Origin: Deltaproteobacteria bacterium
GTDB taxonomy: Bacteria; Desulfobacterota; Desulfobacteria; Desulfobacterales; C00003060
Assembly (NCBI GenBank): GCA_003647275.1
Contig: QMMN01000010.1
Location: 1,121-65,120, forward strand
Reading direction: 5' to 3'
Length of the DNA: 64,000 nt
Made by a program: the position numbers and the translations under genes
Notes under the pieces: generated by a model
The model's input: the letters and a program-made list of their open reading frames with translations, nothing else
Database searches by the model: none
What the model was told of the DNA's origin: nothing
Shown here: positions 10,722-26,103 of the stretch, one piece after another
Numbering within the stretch: the stretch's first letter is position 1
Layout: the number at the start of each line of letters is the position of its first letter

Positions 10722-11138
10722 CTACCCGTGCGCTTGATGAGATCCTCGATTCCTCATATAATCGTCCAGGGCCGCCTGTAAGGTCTCAGCAGCCAGGCTA
10801 GCACAATCCATATGGTCTCTGGGAAGACCACCCATGGATGCCTGGATAAGATCAGCGTCAATGGCCAGGATCTCATCCGGGGTTTTCCCCTTGGCAAGAT
10901 CTGCGGCAGCACAAACACAGTTTAGACTATAAACGCATCCATTGGTCTGGTAAGAGGTCTCTGCGACGCGATTTCCGGCAAATGTCAGGCGGATCTCCAT
11001 GGTGTCTCCACACCTTCCTGTCACACACGCTTTCCCGTCGGCCTTTTCTAAATGGGGATTCAGCCAGTAATAAACAAGAAACCATGCCACCACGATGACA
11101 ACAAGGACCCCGCCTGCAATAAGCATATTTGAGCACAT
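10722..11138 (-). CDS. membrane-anchored NifU/IscU-like Fe-S scaffold protein
   Basis: An N-terminal TM helix is followed by IscU-type motifs (CGDTMEI, NGCVYS, HMDCASLAAETL). ATG 11138 overlaps the apbE TAA by 1 nt; the longer ORF to 11198 would overlap apbE by 60 nt. Confidence 0.65.
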   Translation of the reverse strand: MCSNMLIAGGVLVVIVVAWFLVYYWLNPHLEKADGKACVTGRCGDTMEIRLTFAGNRVAETSYQTNGCVYSLNCVCAAADLAKGKTPDEILAIDADLIQASMGGLPRDHMDCASLAAETLQAALDDYMRNRGSHQAHG

Positions 11139-12178
11139 TAAGCCGAAGGCCACCCGTTCGACATAACTCTTGCCCCGGTGGAACTCAAGATCAGACATTC
11201 AGTCCCTGGCACATTTTCTATAAATTTCTTGCCCGCTAAGGGCCCTAAAACAAAACCTGTTGTGGAAAGGGCATCGGCATCCATCGTATTACCAGCCAGG
11301 ACGGTCACACTGGTGCTTTCAAGCGGCGAACGGCCTGTTTCCGGGTTTACAATATGATGGTATAGCTTTTCCTGATCAAAATAGACCTCGTAGTTACCGG
11401 AAGTGGCAATGGCGCCATTCACCATGGTGATGGTGTCAACATAGGGGCCTTCCTTATCGGGATTTTGAATCGCCACCTTCCACGGGATCCTGCTATCCTT
11501 ACCGCCAATGGCTCGAATATCCCCGCCAGCATTAATCAACGCATGTTTCATTCCATGTCGTTCGATCACCTTGGCTCCACAATCAATGATGTACCCCTTG
11601 GCGATTCCATCTAAGGTAACACCCATTCCGTCTTTGGCAAACCGAATGGTATGCCCATCGAACCGGATCTGACTGGCATCTACCAGGTCAAGGACCTTGG
11701 CTAATTCGGCCTCGGACGGAGGGGCCTGATGAGTCGCAAAGTGCGCCTTATAGAAATCAACCAGCGGCTTTACGGTGATGTCAAAGGCACCGTTGCTGGC
11801 CTTATGAAAATAGAGCGAACGGGCAATGACCTCTGACACTTCCAGGGGAAGGTCGGAGATATAGCCGTCCCGGTTGAGCATTCCAATGGCCGAAGCTGAC
11901 TGGTAACGATTCACCAACCGGGCAACCCGATCCATCTCTTCAAAGGCCATCCCGATCACCTCTTCGGCCTCGGCCTTTGAGGGGTGCATCACGGTAATCG
12001 CTGCAAAGGTCCCCATGGAAAGCCGCGCCCTGGTTACTTTATACAGTTTTCTGTTGAAGGCCACACTCTCTGAAACCGGCATCAAGCCACCAAAGGCAAA
12101 TCCCATACCAAGAATGCCTGAGTATTTCAGAAAGGTTCTTCGGTCCATGGTTCGATGGTTTTCTTCTTGAGCATACAT
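11138..12178 (-). CDS. apbE: FAD:protein FMN transferase (flavin-trafficking protein)
   Basis: Tat-type signal (DRRTFLKYSGILGMGFAFG) plus ApbE motifs (LDGIAKGY, ATSGNYE). A GGGGGA RBS precedes ATG 12178. Confidence 0.85.
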   Translation of the reverse strand: MYAQEENHRTMDRRTFLKYSGILGMGFAFGGLMPVSESVAFNRKLYKVTRARLSMGTFAAITVMHPSKAEAEEVIGMAFEEMDRVARLVNRYQSASAIGMLNRDGYISDLPLEVSEVIARSLYFHKASNGAFDITVKPLVDFYKAHFATHQAPPSEAELAKVLDLVDASQIRFDGHTIRFAKDGMGVTLDGIAKGYIIDCGAKVIERHGMKHALINAGGDIRAIGGKDSRIPWKVAIQNPDKEGPYVDTITMVNGAIATSGNYEVYFDQEKLYHHIVNPETGRSPLESTSVTVLAGNTMDADALSTTGFVLGPLAGKKFIENVPGTECLILSSTGARVMSNGWPSA

Positions 12179-12202
12179 AGATTATCCCCCACTTCGTAAC
12201 TG

Positions 12203-12317
12203 TTCAGGAGGTAAGGAATACTGCTGACAAGGATAACAGCATACCTCTTACGAAAGGCATTGGATGCCGGCGGGTCTGCTGCAGGCGGATTCCTTACCCC
12301 AGATACTGAACGATTAC
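12203..12317 (-). repeat. structured intercistronic repeat, type X, copy A (between rnfB and apbE)
   Basis: Four blocks are shared with 16966..17096 (22/25, 13/13, 14/15 and 25/27 nt). The GGGGTAAGGAAT and ATTCCTTACCTCC arms can pair. Confidence 0.75.
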
Positions 12318-12324
12318 CCCACTT

Positions 12325-13194
12325 TTAAGAAGCTACGGCTTCTTTTGCCTTTTCCATCCTTTCCTCAAGGTGGAATGGTTGCACGACATGGATTATATCG
12401 CAGGCCTCTATACAGATTTCCTTGCAAGCAGGTCCGTATTCCATGCATTTGTTCTGGTCGATGGTTACCACACCATCCACCTCAGAGATCGCATTGGCCG
12501 GGCATTCCCTGATGCAGGCCCCACAATGAATACACCCGTTCTCGCAGATGGTTCGCGTGACTTTACGGCTATCCTTGGTGCTGCACCGGATCAGTACCCG
12601 GGCGTTCCTGGGGACCAAGCTGATAATCCCTTTAGGGCAGGTCTTGACACATATGCCGCAGCCTACACAGAGATCTTTCGTGATAACCGGGAAATTGTCC
12701 ACCATGGTGATCGCGTCAAAGGGACAAGCTTTGGCACATTCCCCAAATCCAACGCAGCCGTACTGGCACTCCATGGGACCGGCAAAGGCCAGATCCGCTC
12801 CAGAGCACGCCCCATAGCCGATATAGTTATATTTTTTGTGTACGTGTCCCTGGACCCTGGAGCAGTGGACAGCGGCTACGAGGTCCTCGACGGCGCCTGG
12901 TTTCTTTCCCGTAATTTCAGCCACGGCATCAGCCACTTCCTTTTTGCCAGGAAAACAGAGATTTGGTGGAACATCTGGTTCGGTCACCACAGCTTCGGCG
13001 TATGCTTCACACCCGGGGAAGCCGCACCCGCCTCATTGCGCCCCGGCCAGGGTCTCCTTCACCTCTTCAATCTTGGGATTAATTTCCACCGCAAATTTAT
13101 GGGCGGCCAGGGCAAGCCCAATACCAAAGAACAGGCCGATAACGCCGAGGACGGTCAAGCCACCAAGGGCTAATTTGACTAATGCTGGATCCAT
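12325..13194 (-). CDS. rnfB: Rnf complex subunit B with in-frame TGA (13033-13035) at a conserved Cys position; putative selenoprotein
   Basis: ATG 13194 with a GGAAGGGA RBS opens MDPALVKLALGGLTVLGVIGLFFGIGLALAAHKFAVEINPKIEEVKETLAGAQ. This is followed by TGA and then, in frame, GGCGFPGCEAYAEAVVTEPD... running into ORF 12325..12990, which carries several 4Fe-4S ferredoxin motifs. Confidence 0.7.
12990..13024 (-). other. candidate bacterial SECIS-like hairpin downstream of the rnfB UGA
   Basis: An imperfect hairpin starts 9 nt after the UGA. The outer stem is CGGCUUC/GAAGCUG and the inner stem is GGGUGU/AUACGCC with a bulge, folded by eye. Confidence 0.3.
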
Positions 13195-13216
13195 ATACGT
13201 TCCCTTCCTTGTTTAA

Positions 13217-14176
13217 TCAGAAAATCGACATGCCTGAAAAGCCCAGAAAGGCCAGGGCGAAAAGCCCTGCCACGACAAAAGCAATGGGCAGCCCTCTGAA
13301 CGTGGGCGGCACATTAGCCAGTTCCAGCTTTTCCCGTACAGAGGACATCAAAAACAGTGCGATCAAAAATCCTGTCCCGGCTCCGAGGGAAAGCATTAAG
13401 CTCTCCCATGCATTGTATTCGTTGTCTGCCAGTATCAGGGGAACCGCTATGATGATGCAGTTTGCAATGACAAGGACAAGGTACACTCCAAACGCCTTAA
13501 ATAAGGCAGGGTTGACCTTCCTTAAGATGGTATCCACCGCCTGGACTGAAAGGGAAACCAGTCCGATAAAGACAACCACCTGTAAGAAGTCGAGGTGGTA
13601 GGGTTTCAGGACAAACTGGTAGAGAAACCACGACATCATGGAGGCAAAGACAATAACAATCGTAAAGGTTATGCCCATTCCGACAGCCGTTGTCTTCTTC
13701 TGAGAAGTGCCGAAAAACACGCAAAGGCCTAGATACTTGGTAAAGACAAAGTTATTAATGATCATTGCCCCGATTAGAATAGAAAAGAGATACCCAAAAT
13801 AGAGCTTCTTCACCGTTAGGATCGCTGTCCCCTGGGACCTTCCTGCAGACATCATTTCTGTGACGGTTAAGATATGGGCTTGGTCCTGGTTCAGAGCATC
13901 TTCAAAGGTCAGGGTTACCGTTCTCTTATCAGGGCTCAGGGCGATGTCGGTAATTTTCAACAGGATGTCCGGGTCTTGTTTTTCGTAAACCGAATAGTTG
14001 GCCACATCTTTTGCCCAGGTCTCATCTACAGGCCCTGCAAAGGTCATCACAACCTTGTTTTTGTCCTTGAACGCGACCTTTTTGACAAAACGATGTTCTG
14101 TTGCACATCCGGTTAAAAGGAGTACCCATATAAAGAACGTACACACCAGTATATGATGCCGTCTATCCATTCTCAT
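13217..14176 (-). CDS. rnfA: Rnf complex subunit A with an N-terminal lipoprotein-type extension of about 125 aa
   Basis: The C-terminal 190 aa or so is canonical RnfA (INNFVFTKYLGLCVFFG..., AFVVAGLFALAFLGF). The N-terminus has a signal plus lipobox (LLLTGC) and a beta-rich domain. ATGA overlap with rnfE. Confidence 0.8.
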   Translation of the reverse strand: MRMDRRHHILVCTFFIWVLLLTGCATEHRFVKKVAFKDKNKVVMTFAGPVDETWAKDVANYSVYEKQDPDILLKITDIALSPDKRTVTLTFEDALNQDQAHILTVTEMMSAGRSQGTAILTVKKLYFGYLFSILIGAMIINNFVFTKYLGLCVFFGTSQKKTTAVGMGITFTIVIVFASMMSWFLYQFVLKPYHLDFLQVVVFIGLVSLSVQAVDTILRKVNPALFKAFGVYLVLVIANCIIIAVPLILADNEYNAWESLMLSLGAGTGFLIALFLMSSVREKLELANVPPTFRGLPIAFVVAGLFALAFLGFSGMSIF

Positions 14177-14793
14177 AACCCTTTTTTCCTTCGGTTATAA
14201 ACGACTTCTATATAGTTGAACATCGCCATCATGAGGCCAACCAAAAAGAACCCTGCGGCCGGGAGGGCAAAGAAAAGGAGCGGTCGGAAACCGAGGATAT
14301 CATACCCTAAGAGCGTGCCCATCCCCAAAAGCTCCCGGACAAAACCGAGGGTCATCATCGCAAACATAAACCCGAGTCCCATGCCAAGACCGTCCCAGAA
14401 GGAGGCGGTGACCGTATTCTTGCAGGCAAACATCTCCAAACGCATGGTAATAATCGCAAAGGCTACGATTAACTTTACAAAGATACCCATGGCCTTATAT
14501 GCCACCGGGACATAGGCGGCCAAAACCAGGTCGATCACCGTGACCCATGTGGCGATGGTCAGCGTATAAGTGGGGATCCGGATACGGGGGTGAATGTAAT
14601 CCTTAATGAGTGCGATGGTACAACTCGAAAAAACCTGTACGAAAAGGACGGCGATCCCAAGGAGGAGGCCGTTCATAACGCTTGTGCTGATCCCCACAGC
14701 CGGGCACATCGAAAGGGCCAAACGGAAGATCGGGTTCTCATTTAGGATGCCGTTAACAAACAGTTCTTTGTTCGTCTTAGTTGTAGGTGCCAA
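14173..14793 (-). CDS. rnfE: Rnf complex subunit E
   Basis: RnfE/NqrD family (NGILNENPIFRLALSMCPAVGIST). TTG 14793 with an AGGGAG RBS is preferred; the GTG-initiated ORF to 14847 would run into a repeat element. Confidence 0.8.
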   Translation of the reverse strand: MAPTTKTNKELFVNGILNENPIFRLALSMCPAVGISTSVMNGLLLGIAVLFVQVFSSCTIALIKDYIHPRIRIPTYTLTIATWVTVIDLVLAAYVPVAYKAMGIFVKLIVAFAIITMRLEMFACKNTVTASFWDGLGMGLGFMFAMMTLGFVRELLGMGTLLGYDILGFRPLLFFALPAAGFFLVGLMMAMFNYIEVVYNRRKKGL

Positions 14794-14822
14794 TCTCTTT
14801 CTCCCTGCACGAAGTCTACGTT

Positions 14823-14950
14823 GTGAAGCCTCCCTGTGTTTCTGCACAGGGGCCCTGCCTTACGGCAGTGCTTTGGCGTCCGGGGAGCAAGCCGGTCAAA
14901 ACTGATAGGCCTTTCGGTTCGCAGAGGCGTGAGTCACCCCGGACAGTGAA
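14823..14950. repeat. hairpin-rich intergenic repeat, type Y, copy 1 (between rnfG and rnfE)
   Basis: GTGAAGCC, then hairpin CCCTGTG/CACAGGG, then CTGCC-TTAC-GGCAG, then GCGTCCGGGGAGCAAGCCGGTCAA. This is shared with 49053.., 51587.. and, inverted, 26533... Confidence 0.7.
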
Positions 14951-14959
14951 ACCTTTATA

Positions 14960-15874
14960 CTAAAAGGTTACTGCAATATGTTGACTTGCGATCACCTTGT
15001 TCAGCTTACCCATGCGGTATGCAAACTTTTTTATGATATTTTTAACACCATTTGTCACCGACCTACTGGAGATGGTCGCCCCGGTTAGGGCATAGATATC
15101 ATGGTCTTGATATTTGCTCCGTATGCTTTCAATCTCTTGTTCGGAAAACATGCCTTTTTTCCATTTCTTTGTCTCCAGGTATCTTTTATACTTATCCGGG
15201 AGGGGTTCCTTGATAACTTTGAGCCTCTTCACCTTCTCAAAGGACTTTCCTTTAAACTGATTCTTAAAATATTCCTGTTCGATCTCAGCACCCAGCCCTG
15301 GGTCTTCCTCGTGTTCCATGATCTCCAGGCCAAGGATTTTGAAGTTTGGATCCAAGGCCAACATGACCGAGATGAATGTCTTGAAACCAGGAAATTCACC
15401 AGGAAGCAGGTAGGCCAATTGCTTATCCCCCAGCCTGGCAATGATCGTGGTATCAGCGTAGGTAAAGGTCTTTGGATGCCTTAGCACTGTTTTCAAGGCC
15501 GTCTCACGTTCTCCTTCTTCAATAGCTGCTTCGGGTGAGATGGGCACCTCAAGCTTCTCTACGAATTTCCCTGCCAGGTTAATCACCACCAACTCGTAAC
15601 CCTCTGTAGCCCCCTTTTTTACGGGGACCATGTATCCGATGTACTTCGCCTCTCCATCTTCAATAATATAGCGGTATACGCTATGAAACCTAAGGTCTGA
15701 AGGAGCGGGATTGGCCTTGGTGTATCCCAGCAAAGCAAGCATGGTCTCCTGCACATTTAGATGTTCGTTGTGCTTCTTAGCTTTGGCAGTTATGGTAAAG
15801 ACCAGCCCCATGATTGAACCAGCAATCAGACAAGAAATGGTCAGGCCTATGGTAATTCGTAGGATCTGCTTCAT
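14960..15874 (-). CDS. rnfG: Rnf complex subunit G (FMN-binding), longer than usual (304 aa)
   Basis: N-terminal TM helix and the FMN_bind motif ALTGATISSRSV. ATGA overlap with rnfD. Confidence 0.82.
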   Translation of the reverse strand: MKQILRITIGLTISCLIAGSIMGLVFTITAKAKKHNEHLNVQETMLALLGYTKANPAPSDLRFHSVYRYIIEDGEAKYIGYMVPVKKGATEGYELVVINLAGKFVEKLEVPISPEAAIEEGERETALKTVLRHPKTFTYADTTIIARLGDKQLAYLLPGEFPGFKTFISVMLALDPNFKILGLEIMEHEEDPGLGAEIEQEYFKNQFKGKSFEKVKRLKVIKEPLPDKYKRYLETKKWKKGMFSEQEIESIRSKYQDHDIYALTGATISSRSVTNGVKNIIKKFAYRMGKLNKVIASQHIAVTF

Positions 15875-16938
15875 TTTTGAGCACCTTCTTGTGGTTGCGG
15901 GGCAAAACGTCTGGGTTTAAACCATTGGTCTATGGCAGGCGTCAGGGTGTTCATCAGCAAGATGGCATAACAAACCCCTTCCGGATAGCCTCCCTTCAAC
16001 CGGATCAGAACGGTCAGGGCGCCGATCCCGGCTCCAAAGAATAATTGGCCTGCCTTCTGGTTGGGAGATGTGACGTAATCGGTGGCCATGAAAAAGGCTC
16101 CCAGTATCACGCCTCCTGACAGCACAGCCAACAAGGGGTTGCCTGTAAAGAGTTTTTCACCGCCGAAAACCCAGGTAAAAAAACCAACAGACACAATGAC
16201 TGATACCGGGATATGCCAGGTGATGTATTTCTTATAAATCAGAAAAAGTCCGCCAATAATAAGCAAAAAGGCGGAAGTCTCACCAATACAGCCGGGTCTC
16301 CAACCAATAAAGAAATTGCCGTAGATAGAAGCCAATGACCCAAATTTTTCAATCACCGCCCCAATGCCGTAATGCTTTAGGACATAAAGCGGCGTGGCGG
16401 TCGTGATGGCATCAACCCCGGTTCCCATGTATTTGAAAATCGAGGCGTCCCGAATGGGTAGGAGCCAGGCCGACGTCATGGCCACCGGATATGTGGCAAC
16501 CAGAAAGGCCCGACCAATAAGGGCAGGATTGAATATGTTAAATCCAATGCCACCCATGAGAACCTTTGTCACAAAGATGGCCATGACCGCACCCAGGATA
16601 GGCATCCAGTAGGGCACGCCAGGCGGGATGATGTAGGCCAGCAGGACCCCTGTAATCACTGCGCTGCCATCTTTGACTGTAACAGGACGATGCAAAAGCT
16701 TCTGAGATATCGCCTCGGTTGCAACGCAGCTTGCCACACTGATGACAGTGATGATTAGCGTTTGGAAACCAAAGATGAAAACAGACAAAATAAGCGGCGG
16801 CATCAAGCAGGCCACAACCGTCCACATGATCTTGTTAATGGTTTCCGCGCTTTTGACATGCGGCGAAACCGACACAAACAAGCGAGCTGGCTTCTCTACT
16901 TCTGTTATAGCGGTTGTTTCAGTTTGTGTTTCCACCAT
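15871..16938 (-). CDS. rnfD: Rnf complex subunit D
   Basis: Polytopic NqrB/RnfD family protein (GGVILGAFFMATDYVTSP) with an AGAGGA RBS. Confidence 0.88.
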   Translation of the reverse strand: MVETQTETTAITEVEKPARLFVSVSPHVKSAETINKIMWTVVACLMPPLILSVFIFGFQTLIITVISVASCVATEAISQKLLHRPVTVKDGSAVITGVLLAYIIPPGVPYWMPILGAVMAIFVTKVLMGGIGFNIFNPALIGRAFLVATYPVAMTSAWLLPIRDASIFKYMGTGVDAITTATPLYVLKHYGIGAVIEKFGSLASIYGNFFIGWRPGCIGETSAFLLIIGGLFLIYKKYITWHIPVSVIVSVGFFTWVFGGEKLFTGNPLLAVLSGGVILGAFFMATDYVTSPNQKAGQLFFGAGIGALTVLIRLKGGYPEGVCYAILLMNTLTPAIDQWFKPRRFAPQPQEGAQK

Positions 16939-16965
16939 CCTGGTCCTCTTGTTATTTCATAGCTC

Positions 16966-17096: not shown

Positions 17097-17097
17097 G

Positions 17098-18519: not shown

Positions 18520-18565
18520 AAACTCTCCCTTGTAAAGATGGGGTCATAGCACACGTATAGGCACT

Positions 18566-19078
18566 CTACCCTGCAAAGCCCTTTGATAGCACAGCCTGAC
18601 CGTATGCCTCCCTTGTCTCCTGGGAAAGCTCGCCCGGTTTGCCAAAACGCAAGGCGTTGGTGGTGCAGGCCGCTACACAGGCCGGTTCCAGTCCCTCATC
18701 GATCCTATCCATACAAAGATCGCATTTGATGGCTTTGCCTGTTTGGGGATTCCACTGGGGAATATTCCAGGGACAGGCCGTGATGCACGCTTTGCAGCCC
18801 GCACATAGATCGGCCACGATGTACACGATGCCGTCTTTGGCTCTCCTTCGGATGGCCTCGGTCGGGCAGGCACCTATGCACCAGGCGTCCTCACAGTGAA
18901 AGCAAGGAAGAAACAGGGCCGACATCCTTGGTACGCCATTTACCAGTTTCGGCCCGAGTATGACGATCTTTCCCAGGCTTGCGCCCTGGGGGACATTGTT
19001 CTTGGCCTTGCAGTGTACCTCACAGGCGTGACAGGCAATGCATCGCTGTGGATCCGTAGAAATACAATAAGCTCCCAT
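18566..19078 (-). CDS. 4Fe-4S multi-cluster ferredoxin subunit (DmsB/PsrB-like) of the molybdopterin enzyme
   Basis: A 170 aa ORF with Cys groups CIACHACEVHC, CFHCEDAWCIGACP, CAGCKACITACP and CDLC...C. Confidence 0.8.
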   Translation of the reverse strand: MGAYCISTDPQRCIACHACEVHCKAKNNVPQGASLGKIVILGPKLVNGVPRMSALFLPCFHCEDAWCIGACPTEAIRRRAKDGIVYIVADLCAGCKACITACPWNIPQWNPQTGKAIKCDLCMDRIDEGLEPACVAACTTNALRFGKPGELSQETREAYGQAVLSKGFAG

Positions 19079-19163: not shown

Positions 19164-21251
19164 TCACGCCTTTTTCACGCTCACCAGGGTGTGATCAAGG
19201 GCCGGACTTCCGCCTATGGTATCCATGATGTGTTCCTGAAGCAATGTATCGGCCACACCCCGCTTGTAGCTCCTGGTGCATCCGGCCTCCTGGTGACCAA
19301 AACCATGGAGTATAAAGACCGCTTCAGGATGAATCAGATCGGTGACAAAGGCCCTTAATGTTCCTTTACCCACCTTTGAACTTACCTCTACCATCTCGTT
19401 GTTCTTAATCCCCAAAGCTTCGGCTTTCTTGTTGTTGATCCAGAGCACGTTTTCGGATACGAGTTCGTTCAAGTAAGGGTTGTTCTGGGTAGCGACATGG
19501 GTGTGGGCCGCACAGCGGCCAACCATAAGCCGGAAAGTACTCTCAGGGGTTTCCAGCTTTTCATAGGGAGGAAAAGAGGGAAAGCCGTGTTCCTCCATCA
19601 AGCTTGAAACAAACTCAATCTTGCCCGAAGGGGGCTTGAACTTGAGGCCGTCTTTTCGGTCCCACCATATGGGTTTGTCGCTCAGCTCAACAAATCCCTT
19701 TGCTTCAAAATCCTCTGGTTTGAGTCCCAGATCAGCCAGTTGATAATTCCAAATATCCTCGATGGATTCATAGGGGAAATATTCACCCGCTCCCAGCCTT
19801 TCAGCCAGGGCCTTTACAATCCACCACCCCGGCTTCGTGTCATACCGAGGCGTCACGCACTGCACCCGCCGGTAGGGAGCCGGTTTCAGGCCCGGGAACA
19901 TCTTGATAGGATCTGACCGTTCCAAGAATGTGGACTCTGGCAAAACCACATCGCTCATCCAGGTGATTCCGCCCCAGTTGATATCAATACTGACAATGAG
20001 GTCCAGTTTTTCAAGGGCCTTGAGGTTTTGGTTAAGGTCGGGGATCGAGTACAAGGGGTCAAAACGGAAGGCGAAAAGGACCTTGATGGGATAGGGGTCC
20101 TCATTTAGTACAGCCAAGGGGAACATGCCCCCAACGCCGTGAGCTGGATCCGCAATAGGGTACTTATCCTGCCCGCAACCGTCGAACCTACGGGTATCCT
20201 CCATCTTGGGAAACTTCTGGCTTGAATAGTTGCGCAATCCAGCCTTATGACCGGCATCCTTGGGGCCCTTCTTGAAGAAGATGCCGCCCTTTGCCTCAAT
20301 ACTCCCCATAAGGGCGTTTAAGATCAAGAGCGAACGCCTAAAATAGATCTCATTAGGGTGATTCGCGCCCCTGTAACCATAGTGAAAGATAACAGACGGT
20401 TTGGCCTCGCCTAGTTCCTGCGCCAGTGCAACAATTTCATTGGCCGGGATACCGGTTTCCTCTTCTGCCCACTCCGGGGTGTAACGATCGACAAAGGTAC
20501 GGAGCTTCTCGAAACCATCGACCCACCGATCCACATATTCCGCGTCAAAGAGGCGCTCCTTGATAATGACGTTCATCAGGGCATAATTGAGGGCAAGGTC
20601 GGTTCCTGGCCGAATCATCAGGTAACGGGTGGACTTTGCGGCTGTGATCGTAACCCGTGGATCCACATAGGTCAGCTTGGCCCCCTTTCCCATGGCGTCG
20701 AGCAGGTTATTAACCGCCTTTACTTCTATGGCCTCAAAGATATTGCGGCCATAGAGCACAATGTGTTTGGTGTTTCCATAGTCAACACTGATCTGGGCGT
20801 CGGTGTACCCGAAAAGGGATCTGCACGCCGTGTTGACCGACCCCTTACATAAAGCGTCATGGGTAAAATAATTGGGGGTTCCTATAGCCTTTGTAAAGGT
20901 CTTGCTCAGGTCTGTAATGAAATTGGTCCTTTCACACCAGACAGCGGATTTGCTTCCGTATTTTGAAAAAATTTCCTTGCATTTCTCGGCCGTGTAATCA
21001 AGGGCCTCATCCCAGCTCACCCTCTTCCACTGGCCCGAACCGCGTGGACCGGTTCTGATCATCGGAGCCTGTAGCCTTTCTGTGTCGTTAAGCAGCCCGG
21101 TGGCCGCTGCGCCCTTGGGGCATACCCCCCCCTTCATGGCCCCTACATAGGGATTGCCCTCTATGCTTACAATTTCATCGTCTTCCACAACGACCTTTAT
21201 GGGGCATCGAATCGAACACATAAAGCAAAGCGTATACACGACCTTTTTCAT
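19164..21251 (-). CDS. molybdopterin (MopB family) oxidoreductase catalytic subunit, no Tat signal, substrate unknown
   Basis: A 695 aa ORF. The N-terminal motif is CFMCSIRC...CPKG, a candidate Mo-ligand Cys lies in THDALCKGS, and the layout resembles PsrA/PhsA/Ttr. Confidence 0.8.
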   Translation of the reverse strand: MKKVVYTLCFMCSIRCPIKVVVEDDEIVSIEGNPYVGAMKGGVCPKGAAATGLLNDTERLQAPMIRTGPRGSGQWKRVSWDEALDYTAEKCKEIFSKYGSKSAVWCERTNFITDLSKTFTKAIGTPNYFTHDALCKGSVNTACRSLFGYTDAQISVDYGNTKHIVLYGRNIFEAIEVKAVNNLLDAMGKGAKLTYVDPRVTITAAKSTRYLMIRPGTDLALNYALMNVIIKERLFDAEYVDRWVDGFEKLRTFVDRYTPEWAEEETGIPANEIVALAQELGEAKPSVIFHYGYRGANHPNEIYFRRSLLILNALMGSIEAKGGIFFKKGPKDAGHKAGLRNYSSQKFPKMEDTRRFDGCGQDKYPIADPAHGVGGMFPLAVLNEDPYPIKVLFAFRFDPLYSIPDLNQNLKALEKLDLIVSIDINWGGITWMSDVVLPESTFLERSDPIKMFPGLKPAPYRRVQCVTPRYDTKPGWWIVKALAERLGAGEYFPYESIEDIWNYQLADLGLKPEDFEAKGFVELSDKPIWWDRKDGLKFKPPSGKIEFVSSLMEEHGFPSFPPYEKLETPESTFRLMVGRCAAHTHVATQNNPYLNELVSENVLWINNKKAEALGIKNNEMVEVSSKVGKGTLRAFVTDLIHPEAVFILHGFGHQEAGCTRSYKRGVADTLLQEHIMDTIGGSPALDHTLVSVKKA

Positions 21252-21437
21252 GGCACATTCCTCCTCTGAGATCTGTTTAGGCTTATCTATTTCATTAACC
21301 CAATCAATTCGTGACTTGATCGGGGAAGTTTCCTTATGCGGGATAAGGGATCTGTTTTTCTCAATCCCTTATCCCACAAGGGATGGAAGGAAGAGTTTAG
21401 GGGGAAAAATCAGTAATCTACCCGGCAGAAAGTGGTG

Positions 21438-21453
21438 AGCAAGAAGGGTGCCA
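21438..21453 (-). promoter_or_regulatory. sigma54 promoter for the molybdopterin-Rnf gene array
   Basis: The minus strand reads TGGCACCCTTCTTGCT, a full match to TGGCAC-N5-TTGCW, about 187 nt upstream of ATG 21251. Confidence 0.75.
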
Positions 21454-21624: not shown

Positions 21625-21672
21625 TGTGCAACATTAAGCTGCTGGAATTGCAGTGCAATAAGAAACTTGCAC
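21625..21672. promoter_or_regulatory. candidate enhancer (UAS) dyads for the NtrC-type activator
   Basis: The palindrome GTGCAA-N8-TTGCAC (21653-21672) plus TGTGCAAC...TTGCA (21625-21652) lie 170-230 bp upstream of the sigma54 element. Confidence 0.45.
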
Positions 21673-21688
21673 CCCGGGGGTAATCTCC

Positions 21689-21717
21689 TTGACTTTTGGC
21701 GACACTTTATTGATAAT
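21689..21717 (+). promoter_or_regulatory. sigma70-type promoter for the binding-protein/kinase/regulator operon
   Basis: TTGACT, a 17-nt spacer, then GATAAT. An AAGGAG RBS and ATG 21753 follow. Confidence 0.5.
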
Positions 21718-21752
21718 AAGATTAAATATGGCCTGAAGGAGATACATAATAT

Positions 21753-22688
21753 ATGCAAATTATTAAAAATAAGGTCTTCGTAGCGGTTGTTGCGTTAAGC
21801 TGTTTGTTTGCGGCATGCTCCAAAGAAGAGCCAGCCCAAAAAATTGACCTGAGCAAACGAGAAGCAGTTGGCATCAGAGAGGAAGAAGACGTCATTACCT
21901 ATGCCTACCTGCCGCAATATTCCCATACCGTTTCCTATCAGAGGCACTACCTGTTAGTAGAGTATCTCAAGAAGGAAACCGGCCTTAACATCAAGCAGGT
22001 ATTTCCAGATACTTTTGATGAGCACATGAGGATGGTAGGACAGGAAAAGATCGACATTTCATTTTCTAATCCCTTTATTTACGTTAAGATTGCCCATCGT
22101 TACGGGGCGCGCGCGTTTGCGCGCACAGTAGAAGTGTATGGTAAGGAGAACTTTAGAGGACAAATCATATGCCGCGCTGACAACAAGAAGATCAGGACGC
22201 TTGAAGACTGTAAAGGGAAGCGATGGGTTGCCGTCGATCCTTCATCTGCCGGAGGTTATCTTTATGCCTTGGGGCATTTTATTGACCACGGCATTAGCAA
22301 AGAAGACTTTGCAGAGATTGCCTTTGCTCCCGGGCCGGGTGGCAAGCAGGAGAAGGTCGTCCTTGCCGTCTACGCGGGCAAATATGACATAGGCTCTATT
22401 CGGGAAGGGACGCTAAATGTGGTAGCTGACAAGATCGACATAAATCAGATCAGGGTCATTGCCCACACCAAGTGGTATCCGGGGTGGGTATATGCCTCCC
22501 GTCGAGGCCTTGAGCAAGAGATTGTCGACAAAATTAGAGAGGCATTGGTGAGTCTTGATTATGATAATCCCGAGCATAAAAAAATACTCGATATGGCTGA
22601 TATCATAGGTGTTGTCCCCTCGGAAGATTTAGAGTTCGACTCCATCAGAGACTTGGCAGCCAAGGTCGGAATTGATTTGGATGAATAA
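21753..22688 (+). CDS. PhnD-family (phosphonate-type) periplasmic substrate-binding lipoprotein, probable sensor partner
   Basis: Lipobox LFAAC. The overall pattern fits the PhnD/Phosphonate-bd fold, judged by eye. Confidence 0.65.
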   Translation: MQIIKNKVFVAVVALSCLFAACSKEEPAQKIDLSKREAVGIREEEDVITYAYLPQYSHTVSYQRHYLLVEYLKKETGLNIKQVFPDTFDEHMRMVGQEKIDISFSNPFIYVKIAHRYGARAFARTVEVYGKENFRGQIICRADNKKIRTLEDCKGKRWVAVDPSSAGGYLYALGHFIDHGISKEDFAEIAFAPGPGGKQEKVVLAVYAGKYDIGSIREGTLNVVADKIDINQIRVIAHTKWYPGWVYASRRGLEQEIVDKIREALVSLDYDNPEHKKILDMADIIGVVPSEDLEFDSIRDLAAKVGIDLDE

Positions 22689-22697
22689 GGGTAAGCC

Positions 22698-24713
22698 TTG
22701 AGACGATTTCAGATAAAATTTGGCTTTCGAGGCAAGGTCTATGTCGGTACTATCTCTATAGTTCTACTATCCGGGTTTTTGATCGCCTTGTCTGTGAGCA
22801 CAATCGTGTCAGATGTATTATCAAAAGAGTTCAAAAACAGAGGGATATCCATTGCTATAAACCTTGCTGCACGAAGTGAGGAGCCAATCTTGGCCATGGA
22901 TTTCCTTCGCATGAAAGACTTGATTGATGAAGGGGTTAGATCAAGCGATGATATTTCATACGCATTTACCCTTGATCAAAACGGGGAAGTCCTCAGTCAT
23001 ACCTTTGAGGGAGGGTTTCCTGTTGAACTGAAGACAGCAAACAGGGTTTCTGAAGGTCAAGACTACAATATCAAGCTTTTGGACACAGGAAAAGATCTAA
23101 TTTATGATTTTGCCGCGCCTGTGTTTGTAGGGAATCATAGGCTTGGAACCGTACGGATAGGTCTTTCAAGGACAAAAGTTAAAGAGACCATCAATGATCT
23201 CTTATCGACGATTCTCGTATTAATGGGATTATCGATACTGATAGCAGGTCTTGCCGGGGCAGGCTTTGCAGATCAGGTCACAAGACGGATCAAGAAATTG
23301 CATTGGGCATCAGAAGAGGCATTAAGGGGTAATTTAGATGTCCAAGCAGCCCCCCTGTTGAAAAAAAACTGTTGGGAAATCATGAACTGCAACAATGAGG
23401 CATGTCCGGCCTATGGTGAAAGGCACAGGCGTTGCTGGTATGTTGCTGGCACGATGTGTCCAGAGTGTGTTGATGGTGAATATGTAAAAAAGATTGAAAA
23501 CTGTAGGAGCTGTCGAGTTTATAGGAGGAACTCAGGGGATGAAATCCAGCATTTGGCCGAATCCTTTGATGCCATGACACAGTCCCTCAAAGATCACATA
23601 ACCCGAGTGGAAGAATCAAAAGAAGCCATAGAAAAATCGGGGAGGAAATATCGACGTATCTTTGAAGGTTCTATGGACTTTATTTTTGTAGCTGATAACA
23701 AAGGCAATTTTTTGGACATCAATCAAGCTGGCTTGGCCCTGTTGGGCTATGATTCCAAGGAGGCATTCCTTGGAACGGTCAATTTAGGTGATATCCTTGT
23801 CGAACCTGAGCGTATCGAGTCCTTGTTTGAAGAAATTGCCTCCAAAGGGTTCATCAAAGACATGGAATGCACCCTGAGGGCCAGGGATGGTCGTGAGCTT
23901 CAGGTTCTGTTTAGCAGTACGGCCCATAGGGACGAAACAGGTCAGATTATCAGCTACGAAGGGATTATTAAGGATATAACGCAGCGAAGGAATATAAAGC
24001 GGCAATTGTTACAGGCGGATAAGCTGGCATCTATCGGACAGCTTTCAGCTGGTGTGGCTCACGAAATCAATAACCCGCTGGGCTTGATTCTGGGTTATAC
24101 CCAGCTTTTAATTCGCGGAGAGCCCGAAGGATCCGAGAAATATGAGGATTTGAAAAGGATCGAAAAGCATGGACGCAACTGCAAAAGAATCGTGGAGGCC
24201 CTCATTAGCTTTGCCAGGAGAACGGAAACCAAGATGGTCATGATAGACATCAACCAGACGATTCAAGAGGTCATTGCTGTTGTCAGGCATCAATTTGAAC
24301 TCGACAACGTGCGGATTGAGACCGTCTTTGATGAGGCCATACCACCTTTTGGAGGGGACAGCGATAAACTCAAGCAGGTTTTTATGAATCTTCTTATGAA
24401 TGCCAATCAGGCTATTTCGGATTCAGGTCATATCACGATTTCCACCAAGTTTGTTCGGGGACAAGAGGAGGTCCGTATCATCGTTGAGGATACGGGCTCC
24501 GGGATTCCACCAGAGATTATCGACAAGATATTTGATCCCTTCTTTACCACGAAGCCAACGGGCCAGGGAACAGGCCTTGGTCTTTCGGTGAGCTACGGGA
24601 TCGTTAAAGAGCACAATGGTGACATCTTGGTTCACAGTGAACCGGGCAGGGGGGCAATTTTTACGGTTGTTCTCCCTGTGTGTCGAGTTGAAGAAGATGG
24701 AGTCGCTCATTAG
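22698..24713 (+). CDS. sensor histidine kinase: 2 TM + periplasmic domain, HAMP, Cys-rich two-CW module, PAS, HisKA, HATPase
   Basis: TTG start. Motifs are [34 protein letters not shown]...CRSCRVYRR, the H-box [10 protein letters not shown], and the N/G boxes NLLMNANQA and DTGSGI...GTGLGLS. Confidence 0.85.
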
Positions 24714-24714
24714 C

Positions 24715-26103
24715 ATGAAAGCAAAGCTCTTAGTCGTAGATGACGAAGCAGATATGCTTAACCTGTTGAAGAGGTCCATTGGAGAGGATCTTGACTGCCA
24801 TGTCGAGACCGCCTTAAGTGGTGAGGAGGCCTTTCGCCTCATTGAGCGGAAGCCTTTTGATCTGGCGCTTGTGGACATCCGCATGCCTGGTATGGACGGC
24901 ATTGAGCTTCTTGAACGGATCAAACAGGTTGATCCATGGCTTACGGTGGTCATGATGACAGCATATGGGGTCATAGAGGTTGCAGTGGAGTCGATTAAAA
25001 AAGGGGCCTATGACTTTATTACCAAGCCCTTTGATCAAGATGACCTGATACGCGTTTTGCGAAAGGCTCTGGAGCGGAGCCGGTTGTTGCGCGAAAACTT
25101 AAACCTGCGAAAGCGTATCAAGGAAGAGGACACCTTTCAAAATTTTATTGGTGTTAGTCCAAGGATGCAAAAGGTGTACGACACCATACAGATGCTCAGT
25201 AAAACGGATGTTACCGTGCTGATTACCGGAGAGTCAGGGACCGGCAAGAACTTGGCCGCCAAGGCCATCCATGCCTTGAGTCATCGGAGCGCCAAACCTT
25301 ATGTGCGAGTAAGTTGCCCCACACTCCCGGAAAATATATTGGAAAGCGAGCTTTTTGGCTACAAAAAAGGCGCCTTCACCCACGCCACTCAGGATAAGAA
25401 GGGCCTGTTTGAAGAAGCCCATGGCGGTACCATCTATTTGGATGAAATCGGCGACATCAGCCCCTCCATACAAACCAAACTCCTCCAGGTCCTTGAGGAC
25501 AAGGAAATGAAACCACTCGGTCAGACCAAGACCATCTGTGTGGATGTAAGGGTGATTGCCTCTACCAATAGCGACTTAAGGTCCAAGATGGATACGCGCG
25601 AATTTCGGGAAGACCTTTTCTACCGATTGAACGTGGTTAATGTGGAAATGCCTCCATTGAGGGAACGCAAAGAAGATATCCCCCTTTTGGTGCACCACTT
25701 TTTGGACAAATATTGCACTAAGTTCAACAGGAAGAAAAAGCAGATCTCTTCGGATCTGATGCAGTTGTTCTTGGAACGAAACTGGGAAGGGAATGTCAGG
25801 GAATTAAAAAACACGATTAAGGGTGCTGTAGTAATGGCCCCGGAAGACTGGATTCGAATAGAGGACATAGGATGGCATCGCTTCACAGAATCACAGACTT
25901 CCCCAACAGATGAACTTAGTGCGCTTCCGTATCGTGAGGCGAAACAGCGAGTTTTAAAACGGTTTAATGTAAACTATATCAGCAATGCTCTTCGACAAAC
26001 CAGCGGCAATGTGACCAAAGCCGCCCAACAGTGTGGCCTTGAGCGGCAATCTTTGCAACAAATCATGAAGAAATGTGGGATTAAATCGATTGATTTTCGC
26101 TGA
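24715..26103 (+). CDS. sigma54-dependent response regulator (NtrC family)
   Basis: Receiver domain (LLVVDDE...VDIRMPGMDG), AAA+ domain (GESGTGK, GAFTHA, ESELFGY) and a C-terminal Fis-type HTH. ATG 24715 is 2 nt after the kinase stop; ATG 24697 is an alternative. Confidence 0.88.
   Translation: MKAKLLVVDDEADMLNLLKRSIGEDLDCHVETALSGEEAFRLIERKPFDLALVDIRMPGMDGIELLERIKQVDPWLTVVMMTAYGVIEVAVESIKKGAYDFITKPFDQDDLIRVLRKALERSRLLRENLNLRKRIKEEDTFQNFIGVSPRMQKVYDTIQMLSKTDVTVLITGESGTGKNLAAKAIHALSHRSAKPYVRVSCPTLPENILESELFGYKKGAFTHATQDKKGLFEEAHGGTIYLDEIGDISPSIQTKLLQVLEDKEMKPLGQTKTICVDVRVIASTNSDLRSKMDTREFREDLFYRLNVVNVEMPPLRERKEDIPLLVHHFLDKYCTKFNRKKKQISSDLMQLFLERNWEGNVRELKNTIKGAVVMAPEDWIRIEDIGWHRFTESQTSPTDELSALPYREAKQRVLKRFNVNYISNALRQTSGNVTKAAQQCGLERQSLQQIMKKCGIKSIDFR

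Follow-up and report, generated by a model that had tools for sequence, protein, structure and literature searches.

Two kinds of described enzyme come close to the one considered here. In PhsABC of Salmonella and PsrABC of Thermus (PDB 2vpw) and Wolinella, a molybdopterin oxidoreductase (MopB) subunit with an FS0 cluster and a cysteine ligand to molybdenum is joined by a four-cluster FeS subunit, a Tat leader is present, and the complex has an NrfD-type anchor (PhsC or PsrC). For PhsABC, thiosulfate reduction is known to depend on energy supplied by the proton-motive force (Stoffels 2012, cited in PMC13490349). The PhsAB-like enzymes are two-subunit and signal-less and either stand alone or lie upstream of an 11-subunit Nuo; examples are Dissulfuribacter thermophilus DITHS69_2027/2028, Desulfolithobacter GF1_30490/30500, Desulfovibrio G20 Dde_1075/1076 and Thermodesulfovibrio N1 THER_0567/0568. 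Proteomic and fitness evidence has made them candidates, in the literature, for a cytoplasmic thiosulfate reductase: in D. thermophilus, PhsAB-like proteins with neither a Tat leader nor PhsC rank with the most strongly induced proteins during thiosulfate disproportionation, where TauE and a co-occurring transmembrane (TM) protein are also up (PMC13490349), and PhsAB mutants of Desulfovibrio G20 have a mild, thiosulfate-specific fitness defect, being least fit on thiosulfate (PMC4215793). Locus tags put PhsA-1/PhsB-1 of strain GF1 directly before Nuo subunits (PMC9751629), and the Nuo linkage of the N1 pair has already been published together with its interpretation as coupling (PMC5165239).

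Regulation and electron supply have described counterparts, too. In the oxyanion sensors AioXSR, ArrXSR and TtrSR, a MopB enzyme operon is controlled by a periplasmic binder of the PhnD/PtxB fold, a histidine kinase and a response regulator; the binder is a free protein in the Aio and Arr systems but part of TtrS in the third. AioR is sigma-54 dependent. Classical Rnf, as in A. woodii, has six subunits (CDGEAB), with an NADH/FMN domain in RnfC, a small polyferredoxin as RnfB and ApbE alongside, while formate hydrogenlyase and complex-I-like assemblies mount a soluble MopB and a four-cluster ferredoxin subunit on an ion-translocating module. Our literature search found no paper on an Rnf-linked form, or on sigma-54/PhnD-type control, of PhsAB-like enzymes.

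The locus described here (Table 1) lies in a 64,000-nucleotide stretch of DNA, which we call the window, from a Deltaproteobacteria bacterium of the sulfate-reducer type. Domain and model matches bear out the gene order MopB-FeS-rnfCDGEAB-apbE-NifU-like (minus strand, 21251 to 10722) given by an earlier sequence-only reading, as well as its divergent operon of a PhnD-like protein, a two-CW kinase and a sigma-54 activator. The extent proposed then, 10722 to 26103, holds for gene content but not as the end of the functional unit, which continues past 26103 through UAS2, P2 and the TauE-like and orf206 genes to 29969. Neither this second promoter with its UAS nor the TauE-like transporter had been noticed. 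Intergenic spacing in the minus-strand array ranges from a 61-bp overlap up to 159 bp, a search for a convincing terminator inside it found none, and the whole array sits behind the window's sole full-consensus sigma-54 promoter. The MopB-FeS, rnf, apbE and NifU-like genes are predicted to be co-transcribed.

Table 1. Features of the locus, with positions in the window
Feature	Position	Strand	Basis
IscU/NifU_N-like protein, membrane-anchored	10722..11198	-	NifU_N 62.5 bits; one N-terminal TM helix; three IscU-type scaffold Cys
apbE flavin transferase with Tat-type leader	11138..12178	-	Pfam ApbE 251 bits; RRTFLK leader in translation
rnfB, in-frame TGA (13033-13035) read as selenocysteine	12325..13194	-	NF005503 283 bits (cut-off 252), C-terminal part
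rnfA with ~125-aa N-terminal lipoprotein-like extension	13217..14176	-	Rnf-Nqr domain, residues 131-316
rnfE	14173..14847	-	NF009070 212 bits (cut-off 184)
rnfG, long form, 304 aa	14960..15874	-	FMN_bind; TIGR01947 72.6 bits, below cut-off 102
rnfD	15871..16938	-	TIGR01946 333 bits (cut-off 207)
rnfC, NADH/FMN-binding subunit	17098..18519	-	TIGR01945 490 bits (cut-off 246); Complex1_51K, SLBB, RnfC_N
Four-[4Fe-4S] electron-transfer subunit, 170 aa, DmsB/PhsB-like	18566..19078	-	Fer4_11; four Cys groups
MopB catalytic subunit, 695 aa, PhsA/PsrA-like, no Tat leader	19164..21251	-	Pfam Molybdop_Fe4S4 + Molybdopterin + Molydop_binding
Strong hairpin in ~175-nt 5' leader of MopB transcript	21334..21381	-	Arms GGGATAAGGGAT, unique in window
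Sigma-54 promoter P1 (-24/-12), TGGCACCCTTCTTGCT	21438..21453	-	Sole TGGCAC-N5-TTGCW match in window
UAS1, perfect palindrome TGCAATAAGAAACTTGCA, ~210 nt upstream of P1	21654..21671	.	One of two window matches
PhnD-family periplasmic binding lipoprotein, candidate ligand sensor	21753..22688	+	Phosphonate-bd 197 bits; lipobox-like LFAAC
Sensor histidine kinase	22698..24713	+	Two TM helices, sCache_3_2, HAMP, Cys-rich CW...CW, PAS, HisKA, HATPase
NtrC-type sigma-54 activator, true start probably near 24697	24616..26103	+	REC, Sigma54_activat, AAA_lid_14, HTH_8; Walker A
UAS2, palindrome TGCAATAAATTACTTGCA, directly after ntrC stop codon	26106..26123	.	Second of two window matches
Sigma-54-type promoter P2, TGGCATGCCGCTTGCT	26330..26345	+	Near-identical sites at TauE operons of relatives
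TauE/SafE-family membrane protein with 250-aa N-terminal periplasmic domain	27560..29218	+	Pfam TauE 113 bits, residues 251-543; signal peptide, TM helices
orf206, four-TM protein travelling with TauE	29349..29969	+	Predicted TM segments

Our comparison drew on 80 MopB loci from genomes, 64 of them informative for the downstream partner, and on 80 metagenome loci. The MopB-FeS pair does not stand apart but is a member of the signal-less PhsAB-like family, known from Desulfobacterota, Nitrospirota and Thermodesulfobacteria. This family takes in Desulfovibrionales loci (43-46% identity to the window MopB) and the Thermodesulfovibrio N1 locus of PMC5165239 (L071, 47%). The best NCBIfam match of MopB is the PhsA model NF012032, at 562 bits under its equivalog cut-off of 694, followed by Fdh-alpha at 283 bits; among PDB entries, Thermus PsrA (2vpw) matches best, at 366 bits, and its Mo ligand Cys173 aligns with Cys135 of the window MopB. 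The FS0 cysteines and the ligand cysteine are kept in 93 of 94 relatives. The FeS subunit reaches 128 bits against DMSO_dmsB, below the model cut-off, and its gene is paired with MopB in 71 of the 80 genome loci. MopB starts MKKVVYTLCFMCSIRC, with the first FS0 cysteine 8 residues after the start, and an in-frame twin-arginine leader occurs in none of 92 family members, in agreement with the earlier remark that a Tat signal is missing. Having neither such a signal nor a quinol-oxidising anchor, the dimer is therefore predicted to be cytoplasmic. Two other remarks, that this is the wrong side of the membrane for a reductase of this group and that the substrate cannot be read, find no support, since the whole family is signal-less and already discussed as a cytoplasmic thiosulfate reductase, with the induction and fitness data cited above (PMC13490349, PMC4215793).

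The gene directly after the FeS gene belongs to a redox-coupling module in 50 of the 64 informative loci. This module is an 11-subunit Nuo without NuoEFG in 33 loci, NuoE/NuoF/GltD-like flavoproteins in 10 and Rnf in 7; a metagenome search started from RnfC added 18 Rnf-linked MopB loci. Partner type tracks the clades of the MopB tree, where the Rnf-linked proteins are monophyletic within the signal-less family and sister clades go with Nuo-11 or NuoEF/GltD-like partners. At one locus (L005, MopB-FeS-GltD-like-NifU) an NAD(P)H flavoprotein occupies the slot that rnf holds in the window. In Desulfonema magnum, by contrast, the array ends after rnfC. Every MopB-linked metagenome locus that extends far enough, 16 in all, has the NifU_N-like gene, which Rnf-only loci lack. 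Comparison across genomes and metagenomes supports the functional tie between MopB-FeS and Rnf that the sequence-only reading had suggested.

The window Rnf differs from classical Rnf in its putative shared transcript with a terminal oxidoreductase, in the long RnfG (TGAT flavinylation motif at residue 264) and in two further respects. One is the RnfA extension, which begins LLLTGC, is conserved in relatives and matched no Pfam family. The other is the predicted selenocysteine in RnfB, whose TGA aligns with the first Cys of the N-terminal CGxCGxxGC motif; the codon found here is TGA in 24 cases and one for Cys in 28 among the 80 genome and 80 metagenome loci. An ORF finder splits rnfB at this codon, leaving the RnfB TM anchor as an upstream ORF (13033-13194), and the selenocysteine codon had previously been overlooked.

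Turning to regulation, the promoter pattern TGGCAC-N5-TTGCW is found once in 64 kb against 0.11 expected (at least one match in 9 of 100 shuffles), at the very site picked out earlier. The TGCAA/TTGCA dyads reported with it include a perfect palindrome. TGCAA-N8-TTGCA occurs twice, again against 0.11 expected (at least two matches in 1 of 100 shuffles), and each copy lies ~210 nt upstream of a sigma-54 promoter. Relatives repeat this layout: full-consensus sigma-54 sites stand 115-146 nt upstream of MopB in L081-L083, L092 has a 9/10 site upstream of its MopB, the sequence TTGCACTGCAATTC is conserved as a block ~215 nt upstream in L082, L083 and L092, and the same three loci have a palindrome after ntrC at the position of UAS2. 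The dyad also precedes sigma-54 sites in L006 and L080. Sites near-identical to P2 (TGGCATATAGCTTGCT, TGGCACATAGCTTGCA) come 70-204 nt before the TauE operons of L007, L008, L014 and L080. By contrast, the closest Rnf-bearing genome relatives (L001-L004, L011, L025) lack the PhnD-kinase-NtrC set and have no strong upstream sigma-54 site. The MopB 5' leader is predicted to fold stably (MFE -55.4 kcal/mol, z = -3.25). The activator's sigma-54 contact loop reads GAFTHA. The promoter and palindrome evidence backs the earlier view of a sigma-54-controlled array with an enhancer-binding protein as its activator.

The closest solved relatives of the PhnD-like lipoprotein are PtxB, ArrX and AioX, and the TtrS sensor-domain model matches it weakly, as it matches both PhnD-like proteins of the window. 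Unlike the Aio, Arr and Ttr systems, the window kinase has its own sCache domain and Cys-rich two-CW module, and the predicted target is a cytoplasmic PhsA-like enzyme plus Rnf. The PhnD/kinase/NtrC/TauE set also adjoins MopB in Nitrospirota and Thermodesulfobacteria; TauE is a MopB neighbour in 35 of the 80 genome loci and is joined by orf206 in L006, L008, L014, L057 and L080. L092 combines the same sensor set and Rnf with a different, TorD-fused MopB, so the sensor need not be specific to the window enzyme.

How might these parts work together? We favour, with a probability of about one half, an oxyanion-sensing sigma-54 regulon that serves a cytoplasmic reductase of a sulfur oxyanion, thiosulfate being the most probable one, and that brings its own electron supply via Rnf. 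The lipoprotein would bind its ligand outside the cell and pass a signal to the sCache/two-CW/PAS kinase, and this in turn to the NtrC-type activator, which would bind the two palindromes; P1 would then drive the array from MopB to the IscU-like membrane protein, and P2 the TauE-like transporter and orf206, which may carry either the oxyanion or the sulfite made from it through the membrane. The MopB-FeS dimer would reduce the substrate in the cytoplasm. At about -402 mV the thiosulfate/(HS- + HSO3-) couple lies below NADH. Rnf would therefore have to work backwards, using ion-motive force to raise electrons from NADH to the potential of ferredoxin. These electrons could reach the reductase via ferredoxin or through an FeS subunit docking directly on RnfB or RnfC. 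The sequence-only reading had Rnf balancing electrons as a ferredoxin:NAD+ pump; that direction is not established, and flow from NADH to a low-potential acceptor fits thiosulfate better. In other lineages, an 11-subunit Nuo working from menaquinol or NuoEF/GltD-like flavoproteins may do the same job. The proposed arrangement follows the logic of formate hydrogenlyase, with two differences: the membrane module is Rnf rather than complex-I/Hyc-type, and the MopB is Phs/Psr-like, not FdhF-like.

Imagine instead that this Rnf were a general A. woodii-type ferredoxin:NAD+ oxidoreductase around which MopB-FeS and the NifU-like gene had been inserted, a shared transcript and free ferredoxin being the sole link. 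The same Rnf subtype does occur without MopB in ~12 metagenome loci, its RnfC equally similar (69-74%), and the selenocysteine and the RnfA extension are common to linked and unlinked Rnf. In the RnfD tree the window's own RnfD groups with Rnf-only loci, and for Desulfobacteraceae two rnf clusters have been reported that serve as general machinery (PMC5109826). We nonetheless consider this scenario unlikely: MopB and Rnf have long been stably linked, with congruent clades of MopB and RnfD across ~25 loci, all linked Rnf but the window's own forms one clade in the RnfD tree, some coupling module fills the slot in 50 of 64 loci, and an inducible sigma-54 promoter would be odd for a housekeeping Rnf. 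In addition, the FeS gene and rnfC are only 46 bp apart and therefore leave little room for a separate rnf promoter.

If a functional unit with Rnf is accepted, substrate and direction still have to be weighed. Thiosulfate is probably the substrate, by analogy with proteomics and mild fitness data from Nuo-linked and stand-alone clades, which are 43-50% identical to the window MopB. Beside the ligand cysteine these clades have C-G/A-R/K-N and W-M/H/F, whereas the Rnf and flavoprotein clades have C-K-G-S and Y-R. This difference would suit an enzyme of the same architecture that reduces another compound sensed by the PhnD-like protein, such as polysulfide, tetrathionate, selenite or an arsenic oxyanion; PsrA, the nearest solved relative, is a polysulfide reductase, the ligands of the solved proteins related to the sensor are phosphite, arsenate and arsenite, and the PhsA cut-off is not reached. 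Yet tetrathionate and arsenate are high-potential acceptors with no need of an energy-coupled low-potential feed, scores against the ArrA and TtrA models are much lower, at 170 and 99 bits, and TauE and the sensor set are shared with other clades, so that we hold a different substrate to be quite improbable. Lower still do we rate an enzyme working oxidatively on a very low-potential sulfur donor, for example sulfite (a Soe-like function), with electrons passing via ferredoxin and Rnf or Nuo to NAD+ or menaquinone while ions are pumped. Sulfite to sulfate stands at -516 mV, and energy would be conserved if Rnf or Nuo ran forward. TauE/SafE proteins carry a sulfite-exporter annotation, sulfur disproportionators such as Desulfocapsa and Dissulfurispiraceae commonly have a PhsAB-like enzyme, and a once-proposed sulfite oxidoreductase still has no gene in published models (PMC9751629). 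Against this, thiosulfate gave higher levels of the D. thermophilus PhsAB-like proteins than sulfite plus H2 did (PMC13490349), Phs/Psr-group reductases are the nearest in sequence, and the family is present in ordinary sulfate reducers as well.

On our preferred reading of a thiosulfate-type reductase fed by Rnf, a MopB-Rnf operon beside an oxyanion-type sensor suggests how the little-studied PhsAB-like family gets its electrons.

Pfam and NCBIfam searches bear out the gene calls that a sequence-only reading had made for the minus-strand array and for the operon divergent from it. The catalytic subunit belongs to the DMSO-reductase superfamily, its Molybdopterin, Molydop_binding and N-terminal Fe4S4 domains all scoring above Pfam cut-offs. 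Its top NCBIfam model is PhsA (NF012032), where 561.9 bits fall short of the curated equivalog cut-off of 694 and the match begins at model position 41, past the signal peptide. The closest solved structure is Thermus PsrA (2vpw, 366 bits), and Cys135 aligns with Cys173, the Mo ligand of PsrA (2vpw_A), which places the enzyme in the Phs/Psr group; this cysteine and those of FS0 are kept in 93 of 94 relatives. Formate dehydrogenase was weighed as an alternative identity and rejected: Fdh-alpha, the runner-up model, reaches 283 bits against 562 for PhsA, and a true FdhA is encoded elsewhere in the window.

Features of the window, ordered by position, with strand and defining properties
Feature	Position	Strand	Remarks
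FdhA, a second cytoplasmic MopB unrelated to the first, with the beta and gamma subunits after it	5289-9536	plus	FdhA: TIGR01591, 816 bits, above cut-off
MshE-related c-di-GMP-binding motif in AsrA-like beta subunit	about 8450-8603		NF053729, 50.7 bits vs cut-off of 38; residues 365-415
NifU_N-domain (IscU-like) protein, 158 aa		minus	one TM helix; three IscU cysteines kept
apbE		minus	RRTFLK Tat-type leader
TGA codon within rnfB	13033-13035	minus	ends the small ORF
Small ORF, RnfB membrane anchor	13033-13194	minus
RnfA N-terminal extension, ~125 aa	13802-14176	minus	5' part of rnfA
RnfC tandem duplication, ~28 residues	~18265-18432	minus	5' part of rnfC; VRLFLKQHAGAPCRVSVKK then ERLFLKRHAGDLYQLLVKKK
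FeS protein, DmsB-type, 170 aa	18566-19078	minus	four cysteine groups
MopB, 695 aa	19164-21251	minus	called with Pfam and NCBIfam
Leader hairpin, 16-19 bp	21334-21381	minus
P1, sigma-54 promoter	21438-21453	minus	TGGCACCCTTCTTGCT
UAS1, TGCAA-N8-TTGCA palindrome	21654-21671		~210 nt upstream of P1
PhnD-family protein		plus	lipobox
Kinase		plus	two TM helices, sCache_3_2, Cys-rich CW...CW, PAS, HisKA, HATPase
NtrC-type activator		plus	Sigma54_activat, 223 bits; contact loop GAFTHA, one residue off GAFTGA
UAS2, TGCAA-N8-TTGCA palindrome	26106-26123		about 217 nt upstream of P2, directly past the ntrC stop codon
P2, second sigma-54 promoter	26330-26345	plus	TGGCATGCCGCTTGCT
orf249	26615-27364	plus	very basic; no family match
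Second PhnD-like protein and methyl-accepting chemotaxis protein	30257-32813	plus	TtrS sensor domain, 138 bits (PhnD-like protein)
Orphan kinase paralogue	37274-39346	minus	no adjacent regulator
EF-G	43200-45308		Pfam
c-di-GMP-I riboswitch	46119-46208	plus	74 bits vs gathering score of 35
FliD-like flagellar cap gene	46181-47551		called start overlapped by the riboswitch

Since MopB starts with MKKVVYTLCFMCSIRC, it has no Tat leader, and an in-frame twin-arginine leader is found in none of the 92 family members drawn from genomes and metagenomes. PhsABC and PsrABC, in contrast, carry a Tat signal on the catalytic subunit and have an NrfD/PsrC-type membrane anchor encoded beside A and B. No such anchor is encoded in the window array, nor is a gene left over for one, each being otherwise assigned, and relatives have Nuo, flavoprotein or Rnf genes in its place. 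The sequence-only reading had put the enzyme on the 'wrong side' of the membrane; because the whole PhsAB-like family lacks a Tat leader, this objection falls, and a cytoplasmic location is the rule. Judged by these features, the protein matches the signal-less 'PhsAB-like' enzymes of recent sulfur-cycle papers. One of them, from Dissulfuribacter thermophilus, has neither PhsC nor a Tat leader and is among the most induced proteins in thiosulfate disproportionation, along with TauE/SafE and a co-occurring TM protein (PMC13490349); PhsAB mutants of Desulfovibrio G20 show the lowest fitness on thiosulfate (PMC4215793). These indirect proteomic and fitness data from relatives make thiosulfate reduction a candidate activity of the PhsAB-like family.

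We rejected the PsrA residues His145 and Arg332 as guides to substrate specificity, the alignment being ambiguous by one position there and the residues variable across the family; beside the ligand Cys, the Rnf and flavoprotein clades differ from the clades bearing thiosulfate evidence. A database search returned 2594 relatives of MopB at E <= 1e-20, and the best 120 of these, 62-99% identical and about 695 aa long, come from Desulfobacterales, Thermodesulforhabdus, Desulfofundulus, Desulfatiglandaceae and others.

Beyond the FeS gene, Rnf subunits C, D, G, E, A and B are all encoded together. The hits to rnfC, rnfD, rnfE and rnfB exceed the model cut-offs, while rnfA (193 versus 229) and rnfG (73 versus 102) stay below despite correct domains and position. 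RnfG has the flavinylation motif TGAT, RnfD has TTAT in place of the usual SGAT-type motif, and ApbE is itself encoded with a Tat leader. Distances between genes of the array range from a 61-bp overlap to 159 bp, with no credible terminator anywhere within it. The N-terminal extension of RnfA, which is in frame and kept in relatives both with and without MopB, has a signal of the lipoprotein type (LLLTGC) and, with it, a small soluble domain without any Pfam match, and the tandem duplication near the RnfC N-terminus makes that protein about 25 aa longer than its relatives.

A six-subunit Rnf requires that the UGA in rnfB be read as selenocysteine. The ORF finder broke the gene in two at a TGA that shares its frame with the remaining rnfB and takes the place of the first Cys in the N-terminal CGxCGxxGC motif. 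Among relatives, the homologous position has TGA in 24 cases and a Cys codon in 28, the in-frame TGA recurring in L025, L081-L083 and about 20 other loci (L numbers label the relative loci that we collected from genomes and metagenomes). Because TGA and Cys alternate at the same position, rnfB is to be read as an intact gene, and RnfB of this Desulfobacterales Rnf subtype as a selenoprotein, with selenocysteine at a predicted Fe-S ligand position. As a SECIS element, the hairpin downstream of the TGA (-20.5 kcal/mol predicted) is not better than shuffles (z = -0.35), so that the selenocysteine call depends on how Sec and Cys are distributed in the alignment. A selenoprotein family annotated 'RnfC' is listed by Peng et al. 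(2016); a Sec-containing RnfB was not found in our literature searches.

Does the join between MopB-FeS and rnf recur elsewhere, as the sequence-only reading had proposed to establish by a neighbourhood survey? It does, in 7 genome and 18 metagenome loci. For the genomes, we mapped the window proteins onto 80 loci around MopB relatives, clustered all ORFs and annotated recurrent families. The FeS gene follows MopB in 71 of the 80. Among the 64 loci with at least 1.5 kb past MopB, to which the partner count was limited, the pair is followed directly by nuoABCDHIJKLMN without nuoEFG in 33 (Desulfobulbia, Thermodesulfobacteria, Thermodesulfovibrio), by NuoE-, NuoF-, 2Fe2S/4Fe4S- and GltD-like genes in 10, by rnf in 7, and by none of these in 14, mostly Desulfovibrionales. 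On a neighbour-joining tree of family members, partner type tracks MopB clades, and the Rnf-linked MopBs are monophyletic with a flavoprotein-linked Desulfobacterales clade as their sister. Linkage of a PhsAB-like pair to Nuo is already published: the paper on Thermodesulfovibrio N1 (L071) describes a Nuo cluster 'linked to' A and B subunits of the Psr/Phs type and suggests proton coupling (PMC5165239), and in strain GF1 the PhsA-1/PhsB-1 locus tags come immediately before those of Nuo subunits (PMC9751629). For the form seen here, a PhsAB-like cytoplasmic reductase joined to Rnf, literature searches found no description. In the complete genome of Desulfonema magnum (L001; CP061800, 2647535-2669613), MopB-FeS-rnfC is followed by unrelated ORFs, with no rnfD-B within 8 kb, and the operon appears interrupted.

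The metagenomes were scanned with RnfC as query. MopB-FeS lies directly upstream of rnfCDGEAB in all 18 of the linked loci, and about 12 further metagenome loci contain this Rnf subtype (RnfC 56-74% identical) but no MopB. An IscU-like gene is present in 16 of 16 MopB-linked metagenome loci that reach that far and absent from the Rnf-only loci having sufficient downstream sequence; it also stands at the end of the Rnf-less array MopB-FeS-GltD-like-NifU of L005. Since this gene ends MopB-linked arrays with or without Rnf, the stretch from the enzyme to the IscU-like gene contains a 'partner slot', which rnf fills. The enzyme, too, can be exchanged: in L092, MopB-FeS upstream of rnf is replaced by a 937-aa protein in which a TorD/NarJ-type chaperone is fused to a signal-less MopB (4917-7730; 30% identical to the window MopB), accompanied by a sigma-54 site and a PhnD-kinase-NtrC set 72-74% identical to that of the window. 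At the level of gene order, this shows that sensor and Rnf can serve another MopB.

The full layout of the window, including apbE and nifU, is found in L081-L083, with the kinase-NtrC pair in L082 and L083; the nearest Rnf-bearing genome relatives lack the window's sensor set. In a tree of RnfD, the MopB-linked Rnf genes fall into a single clade that agrees with the MopB tree, the exception being the window RnfD, which groups with Rnf-only and TorD-MopB loci, so that the window represents a join that is either basal or separate. L088 and L091 contain a second Rnf-linked MopB, which is deeply divergent (45% identical); the one in L091 no longer has the FS0 cysteines or the ligand Cys and is probably a non-catalytic or differently cofactored subunit.

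Turning to regulation, the NtrC-type activator contains the AAA+ sigma-54 interaction domain of enhancer-binding proteins. The nearest solved relatives of the PhnD-like binder are PtxB, ArrX and AioX, and the two PhnD-like proteins encoded in the window each have a match to the sensor domain of TtrS, the tetrathionate kinase; from this kinship and this match we infer the regulatory design of oxyanion sensors controlling MopB operons. As in AioXSR and ArrXSR, a free PhnD/PtxB-fold binder, a kinase and a regulator are encoded beside a MopB operon, an XSR-like arrangement conserved in L010, L067, L082, L092 and Nitrospirota loci, and we regard the PhnD-like protein as a putative oxyanion binder of XSR-type design. 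Literature searches for regulatory data on DVU0172/0173 returned nothing. The second PhnD-like protein, encoded directly upstream of the chemotaxis protein, is 30% identical to the first, which suggests that chemotaxis may be directed toward the same or a related oxyanion; in L080, a PhnD-like gene follows TauE-orf206. The orphan kinase paralogue is 49% identical to the sensor kinase over its full length, CW...CW included. It is one of two ORFs of ~690-700 aa that had been candidates for paralogous MopB pairs, and Pfam identifies these as the kinase paralogue and EF-G.

The full-consensus sigma-54 promoter picked out in the sequence-only reading, P1, proves to be the only such site in the 64 kb (expected 0.11). 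Its -24 GG and -12 GC stand at consensus spacing ahead of the first gene. L081-L083 and L092 conserve it, and full-consensus promoters lie 115-146 nt upstream of MopB in L081-L083. P2, a second -24/-12 element, precedes orf249, the TauE-like gene and orf206, and in many relatives a scan of all loci finds intergenic -24/-12 elements ahead of TauE or Usp-TauE-...-MopB operons. Family-wide conservation of a sigma-54 site upstream of MopB itself can be dismissed: a 9/10 site is directly upstream in only 3 of 78 loci, and for most lineages either the sites precede the Usp/TauE genes that stand before MopB or the locus is without this regulator. The palindrome TGCAA-N8-TTGCA has exactly two copies in the window (expected 0.11; at least two copies in 1 of 100 shuffles), one upstream of each promoter. 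The dyad is also seen ahead of sigma-54 sites in L006 and L080, and L016 has it in the spacer between kinase and MopB; a palindrome again follows the ntrC stop codon in L082, L083 and L092, and these three share with the window the block TTGCACTGCAATTC, about 215 nt upstream of the MopB promoter. Such conservation is good footprinting evidence for a single activator that would drive two promoters, and we treat the array as one putative operon under PhnD-type, sigma-54 control.

The leader of ~175 nt between P1 and the MopB start has an unusually strong fold (z = -3.25) that includes the hairpin, and a predicted pairing covers the ribosome-binding site; neither a Moco riboswitch nor any other Rfam RNA was found in this 5' leader at gathering threshold or at E <= 1. 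Between P2 and the TauE-like gene, orf249 could be a regulator or an insertion. L087 encodes a homologue (2237-3019; 58% identical, weak HTH match) close upstream of its rnfC. Elsewhere in the window, FdhA is followed by sulfhydrogenase/AsrA-like beta and AsrB/HydG-like gamma subunits, and the three look like an NAD(P)-linked formate dehydrogenase, with the c-di-GMP-binding motif at the C-terminal end of beta. The c-di-GMP-I riboswitch is immediately upstream of the flagellar cap gene.

Why should a cytoplasmic reductase be found beside such partners? Without a quinol anchor, the enzyme would need another low-potential electron source. The potential of thiosulfate/(HS- + HSO3-) is given as -402 mV (PMC13490349), and Salmonella PhsABC, according to work cited in that paper, requires proton-motive force to reduce thiosulfate from menaquinol. 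The three partner types would then represent three known ways to bridge the potential gap: Rnf could operate in reverse with electrons from NADH, complex I could be reversed with electrons from menaquinol, and the flavoproteins could employ flavin-based bifurcation. Our main argument for this mechanism, and for a low-potential substrate, is that the three would fit together coherently. Caveats to it are the differing residues beside the ligand Cys, the free-standing copies of this Rnf subtype, the other MopB of L092, and the absence of the sensor set from the nearest Rnf-bearing genome relatives. Taking the proposal further, MopB-FeS might dock on Rnf and replace ferredoxin at RnfB, forming one membrane supercomplex that acts as an ion-motive-force-driven NADH:thiosulfate (sulfur-oxyanion) oxidoreductase; we consider docking unlikely, with a probability of about 0.2. 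What had been observed from sequence, a MopB and Rnf array divergent from a sensor set, is confirmed, and its interpretation is supported in part, the membrane-side objection having been lost.

Papers of 2022 and 2026 note that no functional analysis exists and that the electron route to an enzyme without a quinone-binding subunit is unclear. The clade-wise placement before Rnf, NuoEFG-less complex I or NuoEF/GltD flavoproteins offers a testable answer on electron supply and opens to direct test which donor serves this family and NuoEFG-less complex I; the partner pattern suggests that low-potential electrons are delivered with energy coupling. Further objects for testing that the survey yields are two promoter/UAS pairs, a transporter and what is likely the sensor system, and cultured hosts exist, Desulfonema magnum and Thermodesulfovibrio N1 among them. 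If docking on Rnf were true, the Rnf, Nuo-11 and NuoEF/GltD forms would together define one modular class of cytoplasmic sulfur-oxyanion reductases with energy coupling, and this would name the electron-input module of the NuoEFG-less complex I in sulfate reducers. The finding also bears on a question of long standing, the input to the 11-subunit Nuo complexes in these organisms.
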